Part shown: positions 7,815-57,388 of the stretch, piece after piece
How positions within the stretch are numbered: the stretch's first letter is position 1
How the letters are laid out: each line of letters begins with the position of its first letter
NCBI GenBank assembly: GCA_965231075.1
Contig: OZ246412.1
Location: 14,224-78,223 of the forward strand
From: an uncultured Candidatus Saccharibacteria bacterium
GTDB taxonomy: Bacteria; Patescibacteriota; Minisyncoccia; RBG-13-40-8-A
Length of the DNA stretch: 64,000 nucleotides
Reading direction: 5' to 3'
The notes under the pieces: model-generated
Databases searched by the model: none
What the model was told of the DNA's origin: nothing
Seen by the model: the letters and a program-made list of their open reading frames with translations, nothing else
Made by a program: the position numbers and the translations under genes

Positions 7815-8279
7815 ATGAGAAAAAATGCGAAGGTGTCTGTTCTTTTCATCGTCATGGTGGTCGTGTTCGCCGGGTGCATACAACCACCTCAAATCGCAGA
7901 AGCCCAGGCCTTAATTGCCGAGCTCATGAAATTGGATGCAGGCACATATGCCCCCAAAGAATTCATGAAGATTCAAGGCGACATGAACAAGGCTATGGAC
8001 GAAGTCATGGCCCAGGACAAGAAATTTTTCAAGAAATATGGCTACGCCAGAGAGGCATTAGACAAAGTAATATATGAAGCCAGAGACCTTAAAACAAAAA
8101 TGCCCGATAAAAAGTATGACTACGAAAAAAACAATTATCGGGGCAACAATGATGAGCGCAAGATCCTCGGGCAAGCTGTTTTGATTCTGCGAAACGGAGA
8201 CACTCGTCTCGAGGAGCTGATTGCCGACATGATAGAAGACGTCATTTCTTATCGCTTCGGAGGGAGCGAGAAGAAATAG
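7815..8279 (+). CDS. predicted lipoprotein, compositionally atypical (GC-rich) gene
   Basis: Signal peptide with lipobox VFAG-C; ~46% GC coding sequence against a ~32% background; own promoter and terminator. Confidence 0.6.
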   Translation: MRKNAKVSVLFIVMVVVFAGCIQPPQIAEAQALIAELMKLDAGTYAPKEFMKIQGDMNKAMDEVMAQDKKFFKKYGYAREALDKVIYEARDLKTKMPDKKYDYEKNNYRGNNDERKILGQAVLILRNGDTRLEELIADMIEDVISYRFGGSEKK

Positions 8280-17000: not shown

Positions 17001-18026
17001 ATGAAAAAATCAGTTTGTGTCGTTCTTTTTATGTTCATGTTTTTGTCGCTATCTTTTTCGGCGTTCGGCCAGCAGGTCGAATACAAAAAGATCTATCGAC
17101 TCGGCGTGGCTCCGCTGGAAAAAAACGGGGTCAAGACACTGGAAGAGCTCGAAGCGCTCATCGTCAAAAAGATTGTGGTCATCGATCTATTATTGAGCGG
17201 GCGAAAAGAGCTTGTCGAAGAATTCTATCGACAATTTCCCGAGGCAAGGGTCGAAGAGATTTCTTTTGACAAAAATGACCACGTGCGAATTATTTCGATG
17301 TCCTGGGAGAACTGGGACAAGAAGCCCAAGGTAACGGTACCTGTCGAATGGGCTGGAGAAGGAATCGTTGAGGCATATATTTTTAAAATCGATTATATGC
17401 ACATCGGAAAGTCTTATTGGTTCCTGATTCCCAAGAAGTGTGGGAACGTTTCTCTATGGAAGATCGAAGATCTTGAGATTCCGATTAGGAAAATCGAAGA
17501 GAAGCCGGTTGTCGAGTACCCATCTCGGTCAAACCCCGAGATCGAAACGGTTCACAATCCGGAACCCAAGCCCGTTGTCGAGACGTCCAAAGAAAAGGAT
17601 GATACGGATTATTTCGCAGATTTGGCCGGAGGAATTTTCAAAAGCTGCTACAAGGAGTATATTATCCTCCGGGCTGGTTTCGCGAAAAAAATCAGCGAAA
17701 AATTCGAACTGACCTTCTTGGGAGGAATCGGCCTTCCTCTTGATTTCCAAACCGGATATCCCGGAACCGAGGAATGGAAAGTGGTGTTTATGGGCGACAC
17801 AAAGTTGATATACAGACCATCTTCATTCTTTATCGGTGTAGGCGCCGGAATGTCGTCTGCCGTCAAGGCAGGCAATACCAAGCAACTGGAAGGAATTTGC
17901 ACGACAGGAATCAGTTCAGGCAAGATCGATTTATTTGTTGAAGTGCGTCTTCCTATGCAGAAAGACAAGAGCTTCAAGAACAACTACAAGATATTTGCCG
18001 GAATAGGAGTACACTGGGGGCGATGA
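17001..18026 (+). CDS. secreted hypothetical protein, compositionally atypical (GC-rich) gene
   Basis: Signal peptide MKKSVCVVLFMFMFLSLSFSAFGQQ; ~48% GC; flanked by its own promoter and hairpin terminator. Confidence 0.6.
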   Translation: MKKSVCVVLFMFMFLSLSFSAFGQQVEYKKIYRLGVAPLEKNGVKTLEELEALIVKKIVVIDLLLSGRKELVEEFYRQFPEARVEEISFDKNDHVRIISMSWENWDKKPKVTVPVEWAGEGIVEAYIFKIDYMHIGKSYWFLIPKKCGNVSLWKIEDLEIPIRKIEEKPVVEYPSRSNPEIETVHNPEPKPVVETSKEKDDTDYFADLAGGIFKSCYKEYIILRAGFAKKISEKFELTFLGGIGLPLDFQTGYPGTEEWKVVFMGDTKLIYRPSSFFIGVGAGMSSAVKAGNTKQLEGICTTGISSGKIDLFVEVRLPMQKDKSFKNNYKIFAGIGVHWGR

Positions 18027-22695: not shown

Positions 22696-22779
22696 GATCG
22701 ACAAGTGCCCGGGGGGAGAGTCGAACTCCCATGACCTTGCGGTCACACGATTTTGAGTCGTGCGCGTCTGCCAGTTCCG
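22696..22779 (-). tRNA. tRNA-Leu (anticodon CAA)
   Basis: Minus-strand cloverleaf GCCCAGG...: 7-bp acceptor stem (one A-C mismatch), anticodon stem CACGA/TCGTG, loop CUCAAAA, long variable arm GACCGCAAGGTCA, T-arm GGGAGTTCGACTCTCCC; CCA not encoded. Confidence 0.85.
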
Positions 22780-22809
22780 CCACCTGGGCATGATTTTAAG
22801 TTATCACAA

Positions 22810-35895: not shown

Positions 35896-36594
35896 ATGAA
35901 AATAGGGGGTTTGCAAAAACTAACTCTCGTTGATTATCCAAACAAAATTGCAGCAACAGTGTTTTTAACTGGCTGCAATTTTAAGTGTGGCTTTTGTCAC
36001 AATTTCGACATTGTTGATCCCGACCTTGCGTCGGGACGAGTTCCAATTACCGAAAAAGAATTTTTTGACTTTTTAAAATCAAAACAAGGACTAATTGACG
36101 GAATCTGTGTTACCGGCGGAGAACCCACGATCAATGCTGACTTGATTAATTTTATAAAAAGAATAAAAGAATTAAATTTCTCAATTAAATTAGACACAAA
36201 TGGGAGCAATCCATCGATGCTAAAAGAGCTGATCGATCAGAAATTATTAGATTTCGTTGCCATGGATATTAAAACGAGTCCAGAAAAATATACAAAAGCG
36301 GTTGGCACAGAAATCAATATAGACAATATCAAGAAAAGCGTAGAAATAATCAGAAAATCAAAAATTGATTACGAATTTAGAACCACAGTTGTGCCGGGGA
36401 TAGTTGACAGAGAAGACGTTGAAAAACTTGGCAAATGGTTGAAGGGTGCGAAAAAATTCTCTTTACAGCAGTTCAGAAATCAAAAAGTTTTGAATAAAGA
36501 ATTCGAAAAAATCGTACCGTATTGGGACGATACATTAAAAGAGTTTAAAAAGATATTAGAAAAATATATTAAAAACGTCGAACTAAGAATTTGA
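35896..36594 (+). CDS. nrdG: anaerobic RNR activating protein (radical SAM)
   Basis: CNFKCGFCHN (CxxxCxxC) near the N-terminus; adjacent to nrdD. Confidence 0.85.
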   Translation: MKIGGLQKLTLVDYPNKIAATVFLTGCNFKCGFCHNFDIVDPDLASGRVPITEKEFFDFLKSKQGLIDGICVTGGEPTINADLINFIKRIKELNFSIKLDTNGSNPSMLKELIDQKLLDFVAMDIKTSPEKYTKAVGTEINIDNIKKSVEIIRKSKIDYEFRTTVVPGIVDREDVEKLGKWLKGAKKFSLQQFRNQKVLNKEFEKIVPYWDDTLKEFKKILEKYIKNVELRI

Positions 36595-36618
36595 CTTTAT
36601 AAGTAGAAAGAGTATATT
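36591..36618 (+). promoter_or_regulatory. sigma70-type promoter TTGACT - 16 bp - TATATT
   Basis: Overlaps the nrdG stop codon; AAGGAGG Shine-Dalgarno at 36625 and ATG at 36636. Confidence 0.35.
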
Positions 36619-36635
36619 AGAATCAAGGAGGACTT

Positions 36636-36845
36636 ATGAACATTTTAAAAAATAAAGTTTGGACGTGTTCGGGGTGCAATTGTCAGAACCCGGAAAGTCG
36701 TGCCACGTGTTTTAATTGTGGCACGCTGAAAGTGCTACTGGTCACCAAAGAGCCGGTGCTCGACTTTGGTCCTGATTACTCCGGCGATGGTCACCAAGAA
36801 GAAATTCAAATGCAACGAGATCATGGCCTAGACCCGATTGAATGA
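36636..36845 (+). CDS. small RanBP2-type zinc-finger protein, compositionally atypical (GC-rich)
   Basis: WTCSGCNCQNPESRATCFNCG fits W-x-C-x2-C-x3-N-x6-C-x2-C exactly; ~50% GC; own promoter, SD and terminator. Confidence 0.55.
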   Translation: MNILKNKVWTCSGCNCQNPESRATCFNCGTLKVLLVTKEPVLDFGPDYSGDGHQEEIQMQRDHGLDPIE

Positions 36846-36865
36846 ATTACATTTCCGGACATTAT

Positions 36866-36893
36866 GAGGGACTCTCGTGTCCCTCTTTTTTTA
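36866..36893 (+). terminator. GC hairpin terminator
   Basis: GAGGGACTCTCGTGTCCCTC followed by TTTTTTT. Confidence 0.55.
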
Positions 36894-36937
36894 TTTAATA
36901 CTTGTTTCAGGCCCATTGAAGATGTAAAATTGAATTA

Positions 36938-38263
36938 ATGAGAATTTCAAACATTTTTCTTGTTATTTGTTTGATATCTATTGTGGTCGTATTTTTTGTG
37001 TCGCCGAAAATGTTGGAGAAAAATATCCCTCAATCCCTGCCGGGCGAGGGCGTTTTTGTCGGCGAGGTGACTAAAGAGCCAAATACAAAAAGTAATAACA
37101 TTCAGTTGACACTAAAAACAGAAATTGGAAAAATCTTGGTTACTGTGCCGAATTATCCAGAATATTTTTATGGCGACGTTTTAAAAATAACCGGTAAGTT
37201 GCAATTCCCGACGGTATTCGAAGACTTTAATTATAAAAATTATTTGGCAAAAGATAAAATTTATTACGTTAGTTATTATCCAAAAATAGAAACCTTAAAC
37301 AGAAATCAAGGCAATAAAATTTTTTCTCTAATTTTAAAATTTAAAAACAATCTTACGCAAAAAGTGGAAACTCTAATGCCGTTTCCCGAAGTTTCAATTT
37401 TAGAAGGAATTATTTTGGGCAACAAGCAAATATTTTCTGAAGAAATTAAAAATAATCTGAGTATTACCGGCACAAGTCACATTACCGCAATTTCAGGAAT
37501 GAACATTGTAATTATTTCTGAAATTTTAATGATCGTTTTGATTGGTTTGGGACTATGGCGGAAACAAGCATTTTATTTTGTTGTGGTTTTAATCGTCTTG
37601 TTTATTTTGATGGTTGGTGCACCGGCTTCAGCGGTACGTGCCGGGATTATGGGTATGATTTTGCTATATGCAAAAAAAATCGGACGATTAAATAGTCCTG
37701 TGCGAATCATGATTTTTGCGGGGGCGATTATGCTCGCGTTTAATCCATTGTTATTAAGATACGATATCGGATTCCAACTTTCATTTTTGGCCGTTTTAGG
37801 ATTGATCTACATTAAGCCAATTTTCGATAATCTCTGGGGCAAACTATTAAAAAAAGAGCACATTGGCTCGGTTTTAGAAATCATTAATACGACCATTGCC
37901 GCACAAATATCAGTTTTAGGAATCTTGATTTATAATTTTGGAAAAATTTCTTTTATCTCGCCAGTCGCCAATATTGTAATTGTGCCATTTATAACCTTGC
38001 TAACAATTATTGGTATAATTTTCATTGGGGGACTAACAATATCTGGGTTTCTGGGAAAAATTTTACTTTGGCCGGTATATATTGGCACAACTTATGTGTT
38101 GCGAGTCATCAATTGGCTAGCCCAAATTCCCTGGGCTTCAAAACAAATTTTAGGGGTCCACTGGTCTTGGGTGGTCGTTTATTATATTTTATTAATTGGA
38201 TCGATTGTTTTTTATAATTTCCGAATAAAAAGGTCTACAACACAACACGAGCCATCACAATGA
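36938..38263 (+). CDS. comEC: ComEC/Rec2 competence channel, N-terminal part (DUF4131 + competence domain)
   Basis: ITGTSHITAISGMNIVII and a polytopic membrane profile. Confidence 0.8.
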   Translation: MRISNIFLVICLISIVVVFFVSPKMLEKNIPQSLPGEGVFVGEVTKEPNTKSNNIQLTLKTEIGKILVTVPNYPEYFYGDVLKITGKLQFPTVFEDFNYKNYLAKDKIYYVSYYPKIETLNRNQGNKIFSLILKFKNNLTQKVETLMPFPEVSILEGIILGNKQIFSEEIKNNLSITGTSHITAISGMNIVIISEILMIVLIGLGLWRKQAFYFVVVLIVLFILMVGAPASAVRAGIMGMILLYAKKIGRLNSPVRIMIFAGAIMLAFNPLLLRYDIGFQLSFLAVLGLIYIKPIFDNLWGKLLKKEHIGSVLEIINTTIAAQISVLGILIYNFGKISFISPVANIVIVPFITLLTIIGIIFIGGLTISGFLGKILLWPVYIGTTYVLRVINWLAQIPWASKQILGVHWSWVVVYYILLIGSIVFYNFRIKRSTTQHEPSQ

Positions 38264-39111
38264 TTAGAAAATATCAAGGAAGAATTTTATTAGGACTATT
38301 AATGATTACAATAATCGTTTGGGTTTTTGTTTTTCAAGAAGCAATTACTAATAAATTTTTAGAAATTGATTTCTTGGATGTCGGCCAGGGAGATGCAATT
38401 TTTATTGAAACTTTAGATAAAAAACAAATACTGATTGATGGCGGTCCCAATTTAAGTGTTTTGGAAAAATTAGGCAAAGTTATGCCGTTTTATGATCGAT
38501 ATATTGATGTTGTTTTGTTAACCCATCCCGAGCAGGATCATATGAACGGATTGATTGAGGTTTTAAAAAGATACCAAGTAGGAATGGTGGTGTTTAATGG
38601 AATTATTAGAGACACAGTACAATATCAAGAATTCATGAACATAATTAAACAAAAAGAAATTCTTGTAAAAGTTGTTTATCAAGGGGAAAAAATAAATTTT
38701 GACAACAATATAAGTTTGAACATTCTGTATCCGTTTGAAAACTTGGAAAATAAAAAATTAGCTGATAGCAACAATACTTCAATTGTTTCAAAATTAGTTT
38801 ATAAAAACTTTGAACTACTCTTAACGGGGGACATTGAGAAAAGCGTAGAAAACAAATTAATCAAGGAAAGAGTTGATTTGACTGCTGATGTTATAAAAAT
38901 TGCACATCACGGAAGCAAAACCTCAACTAGCGAAGCATTTTTAAACGCGGTTAATGCAATTATGGCAGTAATTGAGGTTGGCAAAGATAATCGCTACGGT
39001 CACCCGCATCAGGATGTCATAAACCGGCTGAAAAACTTAATCGTTCTCCAAACTAGTACCGAAGGCACGATTCAAATCCTAACCGACGGAGAAAAGATAA
39101 TTAAAAAATAA
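38260..39111 (+). CDS. comEC: ComEC C-terminal metallo-beta-lactamase domain as a separate ORF
   Basis: LDVGQGDAIFIETLDKKQILIDGGPN...LLTHPEQDHMNGL...IAHHGS; ATGA start/stop overlap with the preceding ORF. Confidence 0.8.
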   Translation: MIRKYQGRILLGLLMITIIVWVFVFQEAITNKFLEIDFLDVGQGDAIFIETLDKKQILIDGGPNLSVLEKLGKVMPFYDRYIDVVLLTHPEQDHMNGLIEVLKRYQVGMVVFNGIIRDTVQYQEFMNIIKQKEILVKVVYQGEKINFDNNISLNILYPFENLENKKLADSNNTSIVSKLVYKNFELLLTGDIEKSVENKLIKERVDLTADVIKIAHHGSKTSTSEAFLNAVNAIMAVIEVGKDNRYGHPHQDVINRLKNLIVLQTSTEGTIQILTDGEKIIKK

Positions 39112-39171: not shown

Positions 39172-39546
39172 ATGCCGCAGGTATTCATGATCCTTGGATC
39201 CCAGGTTGTAAAACGCCTGGACCACGAAATCATCAACGAGATCGGAACCACTTTGATCTCATTGGTGGAGCAATTCTTCAAAATCGAGGGCAGAAACGAC
39301 GTGGCGTTTACGGCCGTTTCGGCTATCGCCACGATCAACGAGGCTCCGATTCAAGTTGAAATCCGGTATACTGCCGGCAGGGACGAGTATGGGCAAGGAA
39401 AGCCGTTCGATCCCTCTGAAGAAGAGCAAGAGCTTTTGGCCAGCCTTATTATGGGGGTTGTTCAGGGCTTAACTCTCGGCAAATACAAGGTTTCGGTGTG
39501 GTGCAAGCCATACCACAACTCTGTGTTTAAGGACAAGCCAGTGTAA
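39172..39546 (+). CDS. hypothetical cytoplasmic protein, compositionally atypical (GC-rich)
   Basis: Start taken at ATG 39172 after AAGGAG (the track ORF begins at 39112 inside the promoter); ~50% GC; no signal peptide. Confidence 0.5.
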   Translation: MPQVFMILGSQVVKRLDHEIINEIGTTLISLVEQFFKIEGRNDVAFTAVSAIATINEAPIQVEIRYTAGRDEYGQGKPFDPSEEEQELLASLIMGVVQGLTLGKYKVSVWCKPYHNSVFKDKPV

Positions 39547-42240: not shown

Positions 42241-42249
42241 CTCTTTGTG

Positions 42250-42320
42250 TCGGGCCAAGCGGAATTGAACCGCTATTATACCCACCCCAAGGGTACGGAC
42301 TGCCGTTATCCTATGGCCCG
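42250..42320 (-). tRNA. tRNA-Pro (anticodon GGG)
   Basis: Minus-strand CGGGCCA...TGGCCCG acceptor stem, anticodon stem TACCC/GGGTA with loop UUGGGGU, T-arm AGCGGTTCAATTCCGCT; CCA not encoded. Confidence 0.8.
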
Positions 42321-57202: not shown

Positions 57203-57388
57203 ATGGCCAAAACGTCAGACATCGCAAAATCTAAAAAGAAACCAAAATTCATAACTCGAAAAGTTAACCGTTGTTTTAGGTGTGGTCGTAGACACGGGTT
57301 TATGAGAAAATTTGGCTTATGTAGAATTTGTTTTAGGGAGTTGGCAAATAAAGGTGAACTTCCAGGAATTAAAAAATCAAGTTGGTAA
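57203..57388 (+). CDS. rpsN: 30S ribosomal protein S14 type Z (zinc-binding)
   Basis: 61 aa with [20 protein letters not shown]. Confidence 0.85.

Follow-up and report, generated by a model that had tools for sequence, protein, structure and literature searches.

Among prokaryotes, small zinc-finger proteins with a single domain serve as regulators or adaptors (PMC6562870). The gene for Halobacterium Brz lies immediately 5' of the gene that Brz regulates, on the same strand (PMC2253796), and archaeal ArnA is a prokaryotic protein described as having an N-terminal RanBP2-type finger (PMC6509490). Here, we analyze a gene for a zinc-finger (ZnF) protein of 69 amino acids (aa) that lies between nrdG and comEC in a 64,000-nucleotide (nt) stretch of DNA from an uncultured Candidatus Saccharibacteria bacterium (contig OZ246412.1, assembly GCA_965231075.1). 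This whole stretch is referred to below as the window, and positions given without a locus name are positions within it. One-domain zinc-finger micro-proteins are recognized by a length of at most 70 aa, two CxxC motifs, and the lack of any other domain; the protein has 69 aa and the motif pair CSGC...CFNC, and no further Pfam or NCBIfam domain was found in it. Overall, we modestly favor the view that it is an autonomous two-module micro-protein of an orphan family, which entered one lineage by a single ancestral insertion and has a small binding or adaptor role. The features of the gene unit are as follows:

36591..36618, + strand: sigma-70-type promoter TTGACT-16-TATATT, with 10 of 12 positions matching the consensus, invariant in orthologs
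36625..36631, + strand: Shine-Dalgarno (SD) sequence AAGGAGG, 4 nt 5' of the ATG, with GGAGG invariant in 7 loci
36636..36845, + strand: coding sequence (CDS) of the micro-protein; an identical protein is recorded in NCBI and Logan, and the orthologs are under purifying selection
36660..36722, + strand: Cys4 zinc ribbon of the RanBP2/NZF type, residues W9 to G29, supported by the pattern, PF00641, a profile search of the PDB, the AlphaFold2 (AF2) model, and Foldseek
36723..36785, + strand: linker, residues 30 to 50, predicted to be disordered (AF2 predicted local distance difference test, pLDDT, <50 at residues 37 to 47)
36786..36842, + strand: acidic C-terminal module DGHQEEIQMQRDHGLDPIE, residues 51 to 69, from the family alignments; predicted helix at residues 52 to 62, terminal Glu invariant
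36866..36892, + strand: intrinsic terminator with a 7-bp GC-rich stem, a 6-nt loop, and T7

The open reading frame (ORF; 36636–36845 on the forward strand, stop codon included) starts with ATG and encodes MNILKNKVWTCSGCNCQNPESRATCFNCGTLKVLLVTKEPVLDFGPDYSGDGHQEEIQMQRDHGLDPIE. An earlier note on this DNA had claimed an exact match to the RanBP2 consensus W-x-C-x2-C-x3-N-x6-C-x2-C. This is confirmed for residues 9–28 (WTCSGCNCQNPESRATCFNC), and the match is unique: searching all six frames of the 64-kb window for the strict pattern (W.C..C...N......C..C) gives one occurrence, and 200 first-order Markov simulations of 64 kb give none.

The expression signals were evaluated by comparison with orthologous loci. 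The −35 hexamer TTGACT (36591–36596), which overlaps the TGA stop codon of nrdG (36592–36594), is separated by a 16-nt spacer from the −10 hexamer TATATT (36613–36618). By itself, a promoter-like match of this kind is within chance expectation (6 sites in the window versus 4.5 +/- 2.3 in shuffled sequences). We consider the promoter to be real not because of its match score but because −35 AATTTGACTTT and −10 GTATATT are invariant columns in the alignment of seven orthologous loci. At the other end of the gene, the hairpin GAGGGAC-tctcgt-GTCCCTC (36866–36885) is followed by T7 (36886–36892). Each ortholog has its own, different GC-rich hairpin and T-run at the equivalent place, indicating that the structure of the terminator is conserved and its sequence is not. 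The proposal of an independent mini-gene equipped with promoter, SD, and terminator therefore stands, as all three are in place and all three are conserved in the orthologs. Taken together, the aligned loci show the gene to be a conserved and, as predicted from sequence, autonomous transcription unit (promoter, SD, ORF, and terminator).

Codon substitution patterns indicate purifying selection at the protein level on both ends of the protein. For the finger codons of lineages L012 and L082, 12 are identical, 8 differ synonymously, and only 1 is nonsynonymous. For the tail codons of the window and lineage L092, the corresponding counts are 9, 9, and 1. Between L002 and L093 the finger has 11 identical, seven synonymous, and three nonsynonymous codons (13, 6, and 4 in the tail). 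While ortholog identity is only ~30–55%, the Trp, the Asn, and the four Cys residues stay invariant.

The gene is part of a very small orphan family that is restricted to a single narrow clade of Patescibacteria (Candidate Phyla Radiation, CPR). All relatives of the flanking NrdG come from uncultured Patescibacteria genomes. A word-index search with the single protein retrieved nothing but the protein itself, on a 626-kb NCBI contig. Searching 1.84 billion representatives with phmmer gave 60 matches at E<1e-3, mostly to long multi-finger proteins, which rank high because the scores of several fingers add up; among these 60, four short proteins (56–57 aa) align end to end. By profile search, the family comprises 7 clusters among 5.8 billion proteins, and a metagenome scan, which used a five-sequence alignment, added two further family loci from JGI metagenomes. 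Also, a related CPR genome (L005, 9032–9172) has a 46-aa ORF, MGNRREWICVCGAPNKKSRKTCHECGISKQESAKSLARKRQQKNQK, with a single W/N/Cys4 finger and a basic tail. It is not adjacent to nrdG, and hints at a wider pool of micro-proteins of this kind in these bacteria.

The genomic setting is the same throughout the family. Every member with enough flanking DNA shows the gene order ftsZ, nrdD, nrdG, ZnF gene, comEC, and metallo-beta-lactamase (MBL) gene, and members on short contigs have nrdG, or at least its C-terminus, upstream of the ZnF gene. In L092, two further small genes separate nrdG from the ZnF gene. In outgroups L003–L007, the nrdG stop abuts or overlaps the comEC start, and in outgroups L029, L030, L033, and L044, comEC begins ~240–330 nt after nrdG; no small Cys4 ORF occurs at this junction in either set. 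Given that the outgroups lack the gene and that it occupies the same site throughout the clade, the unit is best explained as a derived insertion that occurred once, in the ancestor of the clade. The gene has been kept in all eight clade lineages seen. In this reconstruction, a complete unit of promoter, SD, ORF, and terminator would have been inserted between nrdG and comEC and then inherited vertically, and as a side effect the terminator of the unit would now separate comEC from nrdDG transcription.

Regarding L092, which is the most divergent lineage, the gap of ~900 bp between nrdG and the finger gene (456–1372) holds two small, GC-richer genes, a 109-aa ORF (562–891) and one for a 52-aa Cys/His-rich protein with a basic tail (1168–1326). 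Both carry their own SD sequences and hairpins. The nrdG–comEC junction looks like a landing site for small gene units.

The two neighbors, whose names in the earlier note are correct by their Pfam domains, are:

35896..36594, + strand: nrdG, the radical-SAM activase of NrdD (Pfam Radical_SAM and Fer4_12), with NrdD directly upstream
36938..38263 (CDS; feature from 36925), + strand: comEC, the part with Competence and DUF4131 (Pfam)

The comEC ATG (36938) has no SD, and a −10-like TAAAAT box lies at 36925–36930, 7 nt upstream. A TATAAT/TAAAAT box ending 6–7 nt before the comEC ATG is conserved in the alignment of six to seven orthologous loci. A conserved −10-like box so near the ATG, combined with the lack of an SD, suggests that the comEC transcript is possibly leaderless. 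It should be noted that comEC is split in the window into the Competence/DUF4131 ORF and a separate metallo-beta-lactamase ORF (36938–39111 in all, with a 4-nt overlap). In two other lineages, an IS200/RAYT-like gene (YHLL motif) sits between the two comEC parts (L002, 8364–9092; L012, 8353–9039), flanked by repeats that encode "VLEGPNI."

The finger is RanBP2-type by pattern and predicted fold, not by the curated family threshold. In an HMM check of the kind the earlier note had in mind, PF00641 (Zn_ribbon_RanBP) is indeed the best Pfam match (E=3.6e-5), but its 23.4 bits fall short of the 27-bit gathering cut-off, so formal family membership is not reached. Other family members score 11–15 bits (lowest 11.4) or have no match. 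The family profile, searched against the PDB, matches Nup358 (1.8e-9, with several fingers summed), RBM10 (7.5e-7), and Nup153 (1.2e-5), ahead of archaeal eL40 chains (1.3e-4). Foldseek places the AF2 model on the fingers of Nup153, RanBP2, TRABID, TAB2, and RBM5 at 0.4–0.8 Å over 24–27 residues (probability 0.96–1.00). The model predicts the fold expected of the type, a Cys4 ribbon made of two short beta-hairpins against which the Trp is packed.

The residues that confer ligand binding on eukaryotic fingers were also compared. RNA-binding RanBP2 fingers have an aromatic residue right after the conserved Asn (for base stacking), usually an Asp before the Trp, and Arg-Arg at +3/+4 (PMC6384913). 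The window protein has Pro19 in place of the aromatic residue, Val8 in place of the Asp, and Ser21-Arg22 in place of Arg-Arg; relatives have S, G, R, or M at the position of the aromatic residue. Ubiquitin-binding NZF fingers carry Thr-Phe, and Ran binders (Nup153-type) Leu-Val, right after the second Cys. Asn15-Cys16 is found at those positions in the window protein. Judged from these residues, binding of GGU RNA, Ran, or ubiquitin in the manner of eukaryotic RanBP2 fingers is not predicted.

The protein has two conserved modules. The earlier note was right that it is a zinc-finger protein but missed the second module, the acidic C-terminal motif. In the finger, C11, C14, C25, and C28 are the proposed zinc ligands by sequence, and W9, C11, C14, N18, C25, and C28 are invariant in the alignment of seven members. 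One member, P0012, has C-x-C in the first knuckle. R22 is retained in five type-A members and P0061, and is Lys in the L002/P0062 pair. The AF2 model has pLDDT ~90 for finger residues 8–30 and ~65 for the helix at 52–62. In the linker, the window protein has an insertion of ~12–17 residues (roughly PVLDFGPDYS) relative to the 56–57-aa orthologs. This insertion also explains a set of apparent tail-only relatives (P0025, P0031, P0048, and P0050) returned by phmmer with residues 31–66, which we rejected as spurious because their beta-propeller repeats ("DFGPDWSPDG") align with the window-specific insertion.

The type-A tail, DGHxEEIQMQxxxGLDPxE, occurs in five members. It is nearly identical in the most distant lineages, the window and L092, whose NrdG C-termini are 74% identical. 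It is heavily altered in L012/P0061, while the sister lineage L082 keeps type A (NrdG C-terminus 91% identical), and again in L002/L093, whose NrdG C-termini are 88–93% identical to that of the window. Divergence of the tail is thus episodic, with the motif kept between the most distant lineages and rewritten in two sub-lineages. A frameshift as the source of the L012 tail was considered and rejected: the DNA alignment and in-frame comparison indicate the same frame with heavy substitution, and no other reading frame of L012 contains the tail motif. Common to all tail types are a Gly, a Glu, a hydrophobic residue (Met or Phe), and the final Glu. Every member has a charge dipole, with the N-terminal module at +1 to +10 and the C-terminal part at −2 to −8.

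If the protein is indeed a small binder or adaptor, the basic zinc ribbon would form a small rigid binding knob for nucleic acid or protein. The acidic tail, with its hydrophobic anchor, would be a short linear motif, serving to bring in a partner or else folding back onto the basic finger. The role of the protein could then be that of an adaptor or regulator, as is the case for other micro-proteins with a single zinc-finger domain.

Several observations weigh against this reading. The genome is small and highly syntenic, so conserved synteny says little about function. The Pfam score is under the gathering threshold and those of other members are much lower. The Foldseek E-values (0.1–0.6) are not significant because the domain is tiny, and AlphaFold may be reproducing a memorized motif. 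The helix of the tail is predicted with only moderate confidence (pLDDT ~65), and the tail is strongly altered in two sub-lineages (L012/P0061 and L002/L093), where it is either dispensable or its partner has changed. Even with these points taken into account, we consider that the adaptor reading, including the single ancestral insertion, is somewhat better than an even bet.

The other readings differ mainly in how much is made of the neighbors. The protein could be a DNA-uptake factor. It might regulate the neighboring comEC in the way of Brz, or it might bind single-stranded nucleic acid in partnership with ComEC. The gene is directly 5' of comEC and in the same orientation wherever the downstream gene is visible, its finger module is basic, and the insertion of the unit coincided with the gain by comEC of its own conserved −10 box. 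There is also a precedent in a small zinc-finger regulator whose gene immediately precedes its target (PMC2253796). However, adjacency is the sole evidence for such a role, and the outgroups run comEC without the ZnF gene. Moreover, the residues for binding single-stranded RNA (the aromatic residue after the Asn, the Asp before the Trp, and the first Arg) are absent (compare PMC6384913). We therefore regard this possibility as unlikely.

Slightly harder to defend, and in our view rather unlikely, is an accessory of anaerobic ribonucleotide reductase, encoded by the last gene of an nrdDG operon and serving as a rubredoxin-like Fe electron donor to NrdG or as a binder of NrdD or NrdG. A terminator scan found none between nrdG and the ZnF gene, and the terminator of the unit closes the nrdD–nrdG–ZnF array. 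The position after nrdG is conserved in the clade, either directly or, in L092, close by, and Cys4 knuckles can bind iron. On the other hand, the ZnF gene has its own strongly conserved promoter, and two unrelated small genes separate it from nrdG in L092. At the ~60 other nrdG loci examined, no finger gene of this kind follows nrdG (the sole other small Cys-rich ORF at these loci, in L038, is 2x[4Fe-4S] ferredoxin-like), indicating that NrdDG works without it in close outgroups. The invariant Trp and Asn and the 10-residue spacing are also indicative of a structural zinc ribbon rather than a rubredoxin.

It is conceivable but improbable that the protein, as a coupling or regulatory factor peculiar to this clade, links the scavenging of DNA through ComEC to the supply of deoxynucleotides by NrdDG, in a CPR bacterium reliant on nucleic acids taken up from outside. 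In one such scheme, the target of the basic finger might be single-stranded DNA or comEC mRNA, with ComEC, NrdD, or NrdG as the docking site of the acidic tail. The insertion would then have rewired an ancestral, translationally coupled nrdG–comEC pair into separately controlled units. If true, such a link between DNA uptake and nucleotide reduction would bear on how these bacteria, with their reduced genomes, obtain DNA precursors.

We consider it very improbable that the gene is a recently acquired foreign cassette, of eukaryotic or viral origin, that carries a RanBP2 finger. The starting point for this idea is base composition. The GC content of the ORF is 46.2%, compared with a window mean of 36.0%, and the interval 36591–36893 is at 42.6%. 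The earlier figure of ~50% thus captured a real excess, but one that is reached only from codon 9 onward (codons 9–69, 36660–36845, 50.5%). The ORF is in the top 2.6% of 210-bp windows by GC, a level that 18 regions of the window reach. Its GC at third codon positions (GC3) is 0.464, versus 0.339 expected from the amino-acid composition, which places it in the top ~3–4% of 69-codon windows. The excess is partly synonymous, and both C- and G-ending codons are involved.

The gene is GC-richer than its surroundings in the orthologs too (0.41–0.51, versus 0.28–0.37 in the flanks), and in seven lineages (the window, L002, L012, L082, L089, L092, and L093) GC3 is 0.44–0.55, versus 0.27–0.40 expected. 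That the excess recurs in orthologs, although synonymous sites look near saturation, argues against the fading signature of a recent import. The description of the gene as compositionally foreign is therefore correct as far as the GC excess goes, but recent import is not borne out: the gene is fixed across the clade, under purifying selection and with conserved promoter and terminator, at the same site in all eight lineages. Codon bias of the highly expressed-gene type was tried as an explanation of the GC3 excess and rejected; compared with the core genes of the window, whose expression levels are not established, the ORF stands apart, as no other core gene is above GC3 0.39.

Three window genes have still higher GC3, at 7815–8279 (0.56), 17001–18026 (0.54), and 39172–39546 (0.65). 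They sit between housekeeping genes, and no Pfam family covers any of them. The N-termini of the first two are of the lipoprotein or signal-peptide kind, and the product of the third starts MPQVF. These genes are probably accessory or horizontally acquired, and are presumably the other "GC-rich cassettes" of the earlier note. Co-occurrence with the ZnF gene does not hold in the one case checked, 39172–39546, which is absent from the loci of relatives.

As regards a source outside bacteria, the gene is absent from the outgroups, and the top whole-protein phmmer matches are long, multi-finger, and eukaryote-like (e.g., from the chytrid Geranomyces). Their scores, however, are only additive. In a single-finger comparison, the closest fingers outside the family are of the "N-P" type, first P0046 (15/26 residues), then P0052 and P0011; some eukaryote-like fingers tie at 14/26. 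P0011, which has two fingers and lies on a bacterial contig, reaches 39.5 bits with PF00641 and also matches Zn_Ribbon_1 and DZR. Because it matches both kinds of model, there is overlap between the RanBP2 profile and the generic zinc ribbon of bacteria, in which fingers of this sort are not exotic. The assertion that this finger type is only sporadic in bacteria is thus overstated, given that a protein on a bacterial contig passes the PF00641 cut-off and the nearest single fingers are of the "N-P" type.

Viral relatives were likewise sought, and none was found in IMG/VR, no PHROG matched at E<0.06, there was no significant fold match in BFVD, and tblastn against phage records gave one insignificant match (E=0.4). 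Although the domain is too short for phylogeny, nothing points outside bacteria for its origin, and there is no evidence here of transfer from a eukaryote to a bacterium.

Equally hard to sustain is the idea that this CPR protein is an eL40-like zinc ribbon that belongs to, or associates with, the ribosome. One family member was named "ribosomal protein L40E" by JGI, the NCBIfam model PRK04136 (L40e) weakly matches 4/7 members (best E=6.8e-4), the family profile does match archaeal eL40 chains, as noted above, and the expression signals are strong. Yet the members score 10–19 bits against a cut-off of 54 (NF003161/PRK04136), the window protein has no match, and RanBP2 fingers outscore eL40 with the same family profile. 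In addition, an acidic tail and a net charge of −4 are atypical of a ribosomal protein, and the family is fast-evolving and limited to one small clade.

Finally, a spurious ORF, noncoding region, or structured RNA would fit a short, unannotated ORF that has no above-threshold Pfam match and lies in a GC-rich stretch that folds somewhat better than shuffled sequence (z = −2.2, terminator included), but the protein-like codon substitution pattern effectively refutes this. The invariant Trp, four Cys, and Asn across orthologs of such low identity, the conserved SD at the right distance, and the lack of any Rfam match in the region also speak against it.

One resemblance that we tried and rejected is to LysW-like amino-group carriers, which have a zinc ribbon, an acidic tail ending in Glu, and a shared "GLDP." In a comparison with a LysW sequence, hhalign gave a probability of 6.7% over nine columns, and no LysW chains are among the PDB matches of the family profile.

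Elsewhere in the window, the sole other CxxC...CxxC stretch, at 57272, probably belongs to a zinc-type ribosomal protein. The window also encodes a transfer-messenger RNA (tag ANTNFAFATA; 1049–1402), a tRNA-Leu(CAA) (22705–22789), and a tRNA-Pro(GGG) (42249–42320).

The direct significance of this gene is small, as it adds one more uncharacterized, narrowly distributed micro-protein family to the large prokaryotic pool of zinc ribbons. It does correct the notion that a bacterial protein whose finger has the RanBP2 pattern points to a eukaryotic origin. It is also a clean example of a self-contained gene unit that was inserted between two formerly coupled genes and became fixed in a CPR lineage, and of a finger and a short tail motif that evolve at very different, episodic rates.

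Compared with known systems, the finger shares its consensus with the RanBP2/NZF fingers of RBM10, RBM5, ZRANB2, Nup153, RanBP2/Nup358, TRABID, and TAB2, and keeps the Arg four residues after the Asn. In eukaryotes, however, these fingers are repeats in large proteins, whereas here a single finger occurs in a bacterial protein of 56–69 aa. Bacterial zinc ribbons (Zn_Ribbon_1, PF13240; DZR, PF12773; proteins P0011, P0046, and P0052) have the same Cys spacing and a W...N-P-x-x-R-x-x-C-x-x-C-G flavor. The window protein scores 12.4 bits with PF13240 (E=0.14), under the cut-off of 25. P0011, P0046, and P0052 have two fingers, often behind transmembrane segments, and lack the acidic tail motif. Archaeal and eukaryotic eL40, which is not known to have bacterial members, is also a small Cys4 ribbon with weak profile similarity, but the score is far under the cut-off and the tail here is acidic.

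ArnA gives weak matches to the family profile (5a8i, E=0.038; 8s05, E=0.022), and the model superimposes on 8s05_C at 0.6 Å; its finger is fused to an FHA domain, whereas the window finger stands alone with an acidic tail. The C(P)XCG proteins of Haloferax volcanii and Brz are likewise lineage-restricted proteins of at most 70 aa with one pair of Cys4 knuckles (PMC6562870, PMC2253796). They are archaeal and none has the DGHxEEIQMQ tail; the likeness is descriptive, and no sequence relationship is claimed. The protein described here is thus a new, narrowly distributed member among the small prokaryotic zinc-ribbon proteins, with a previously undescribed tail motif.

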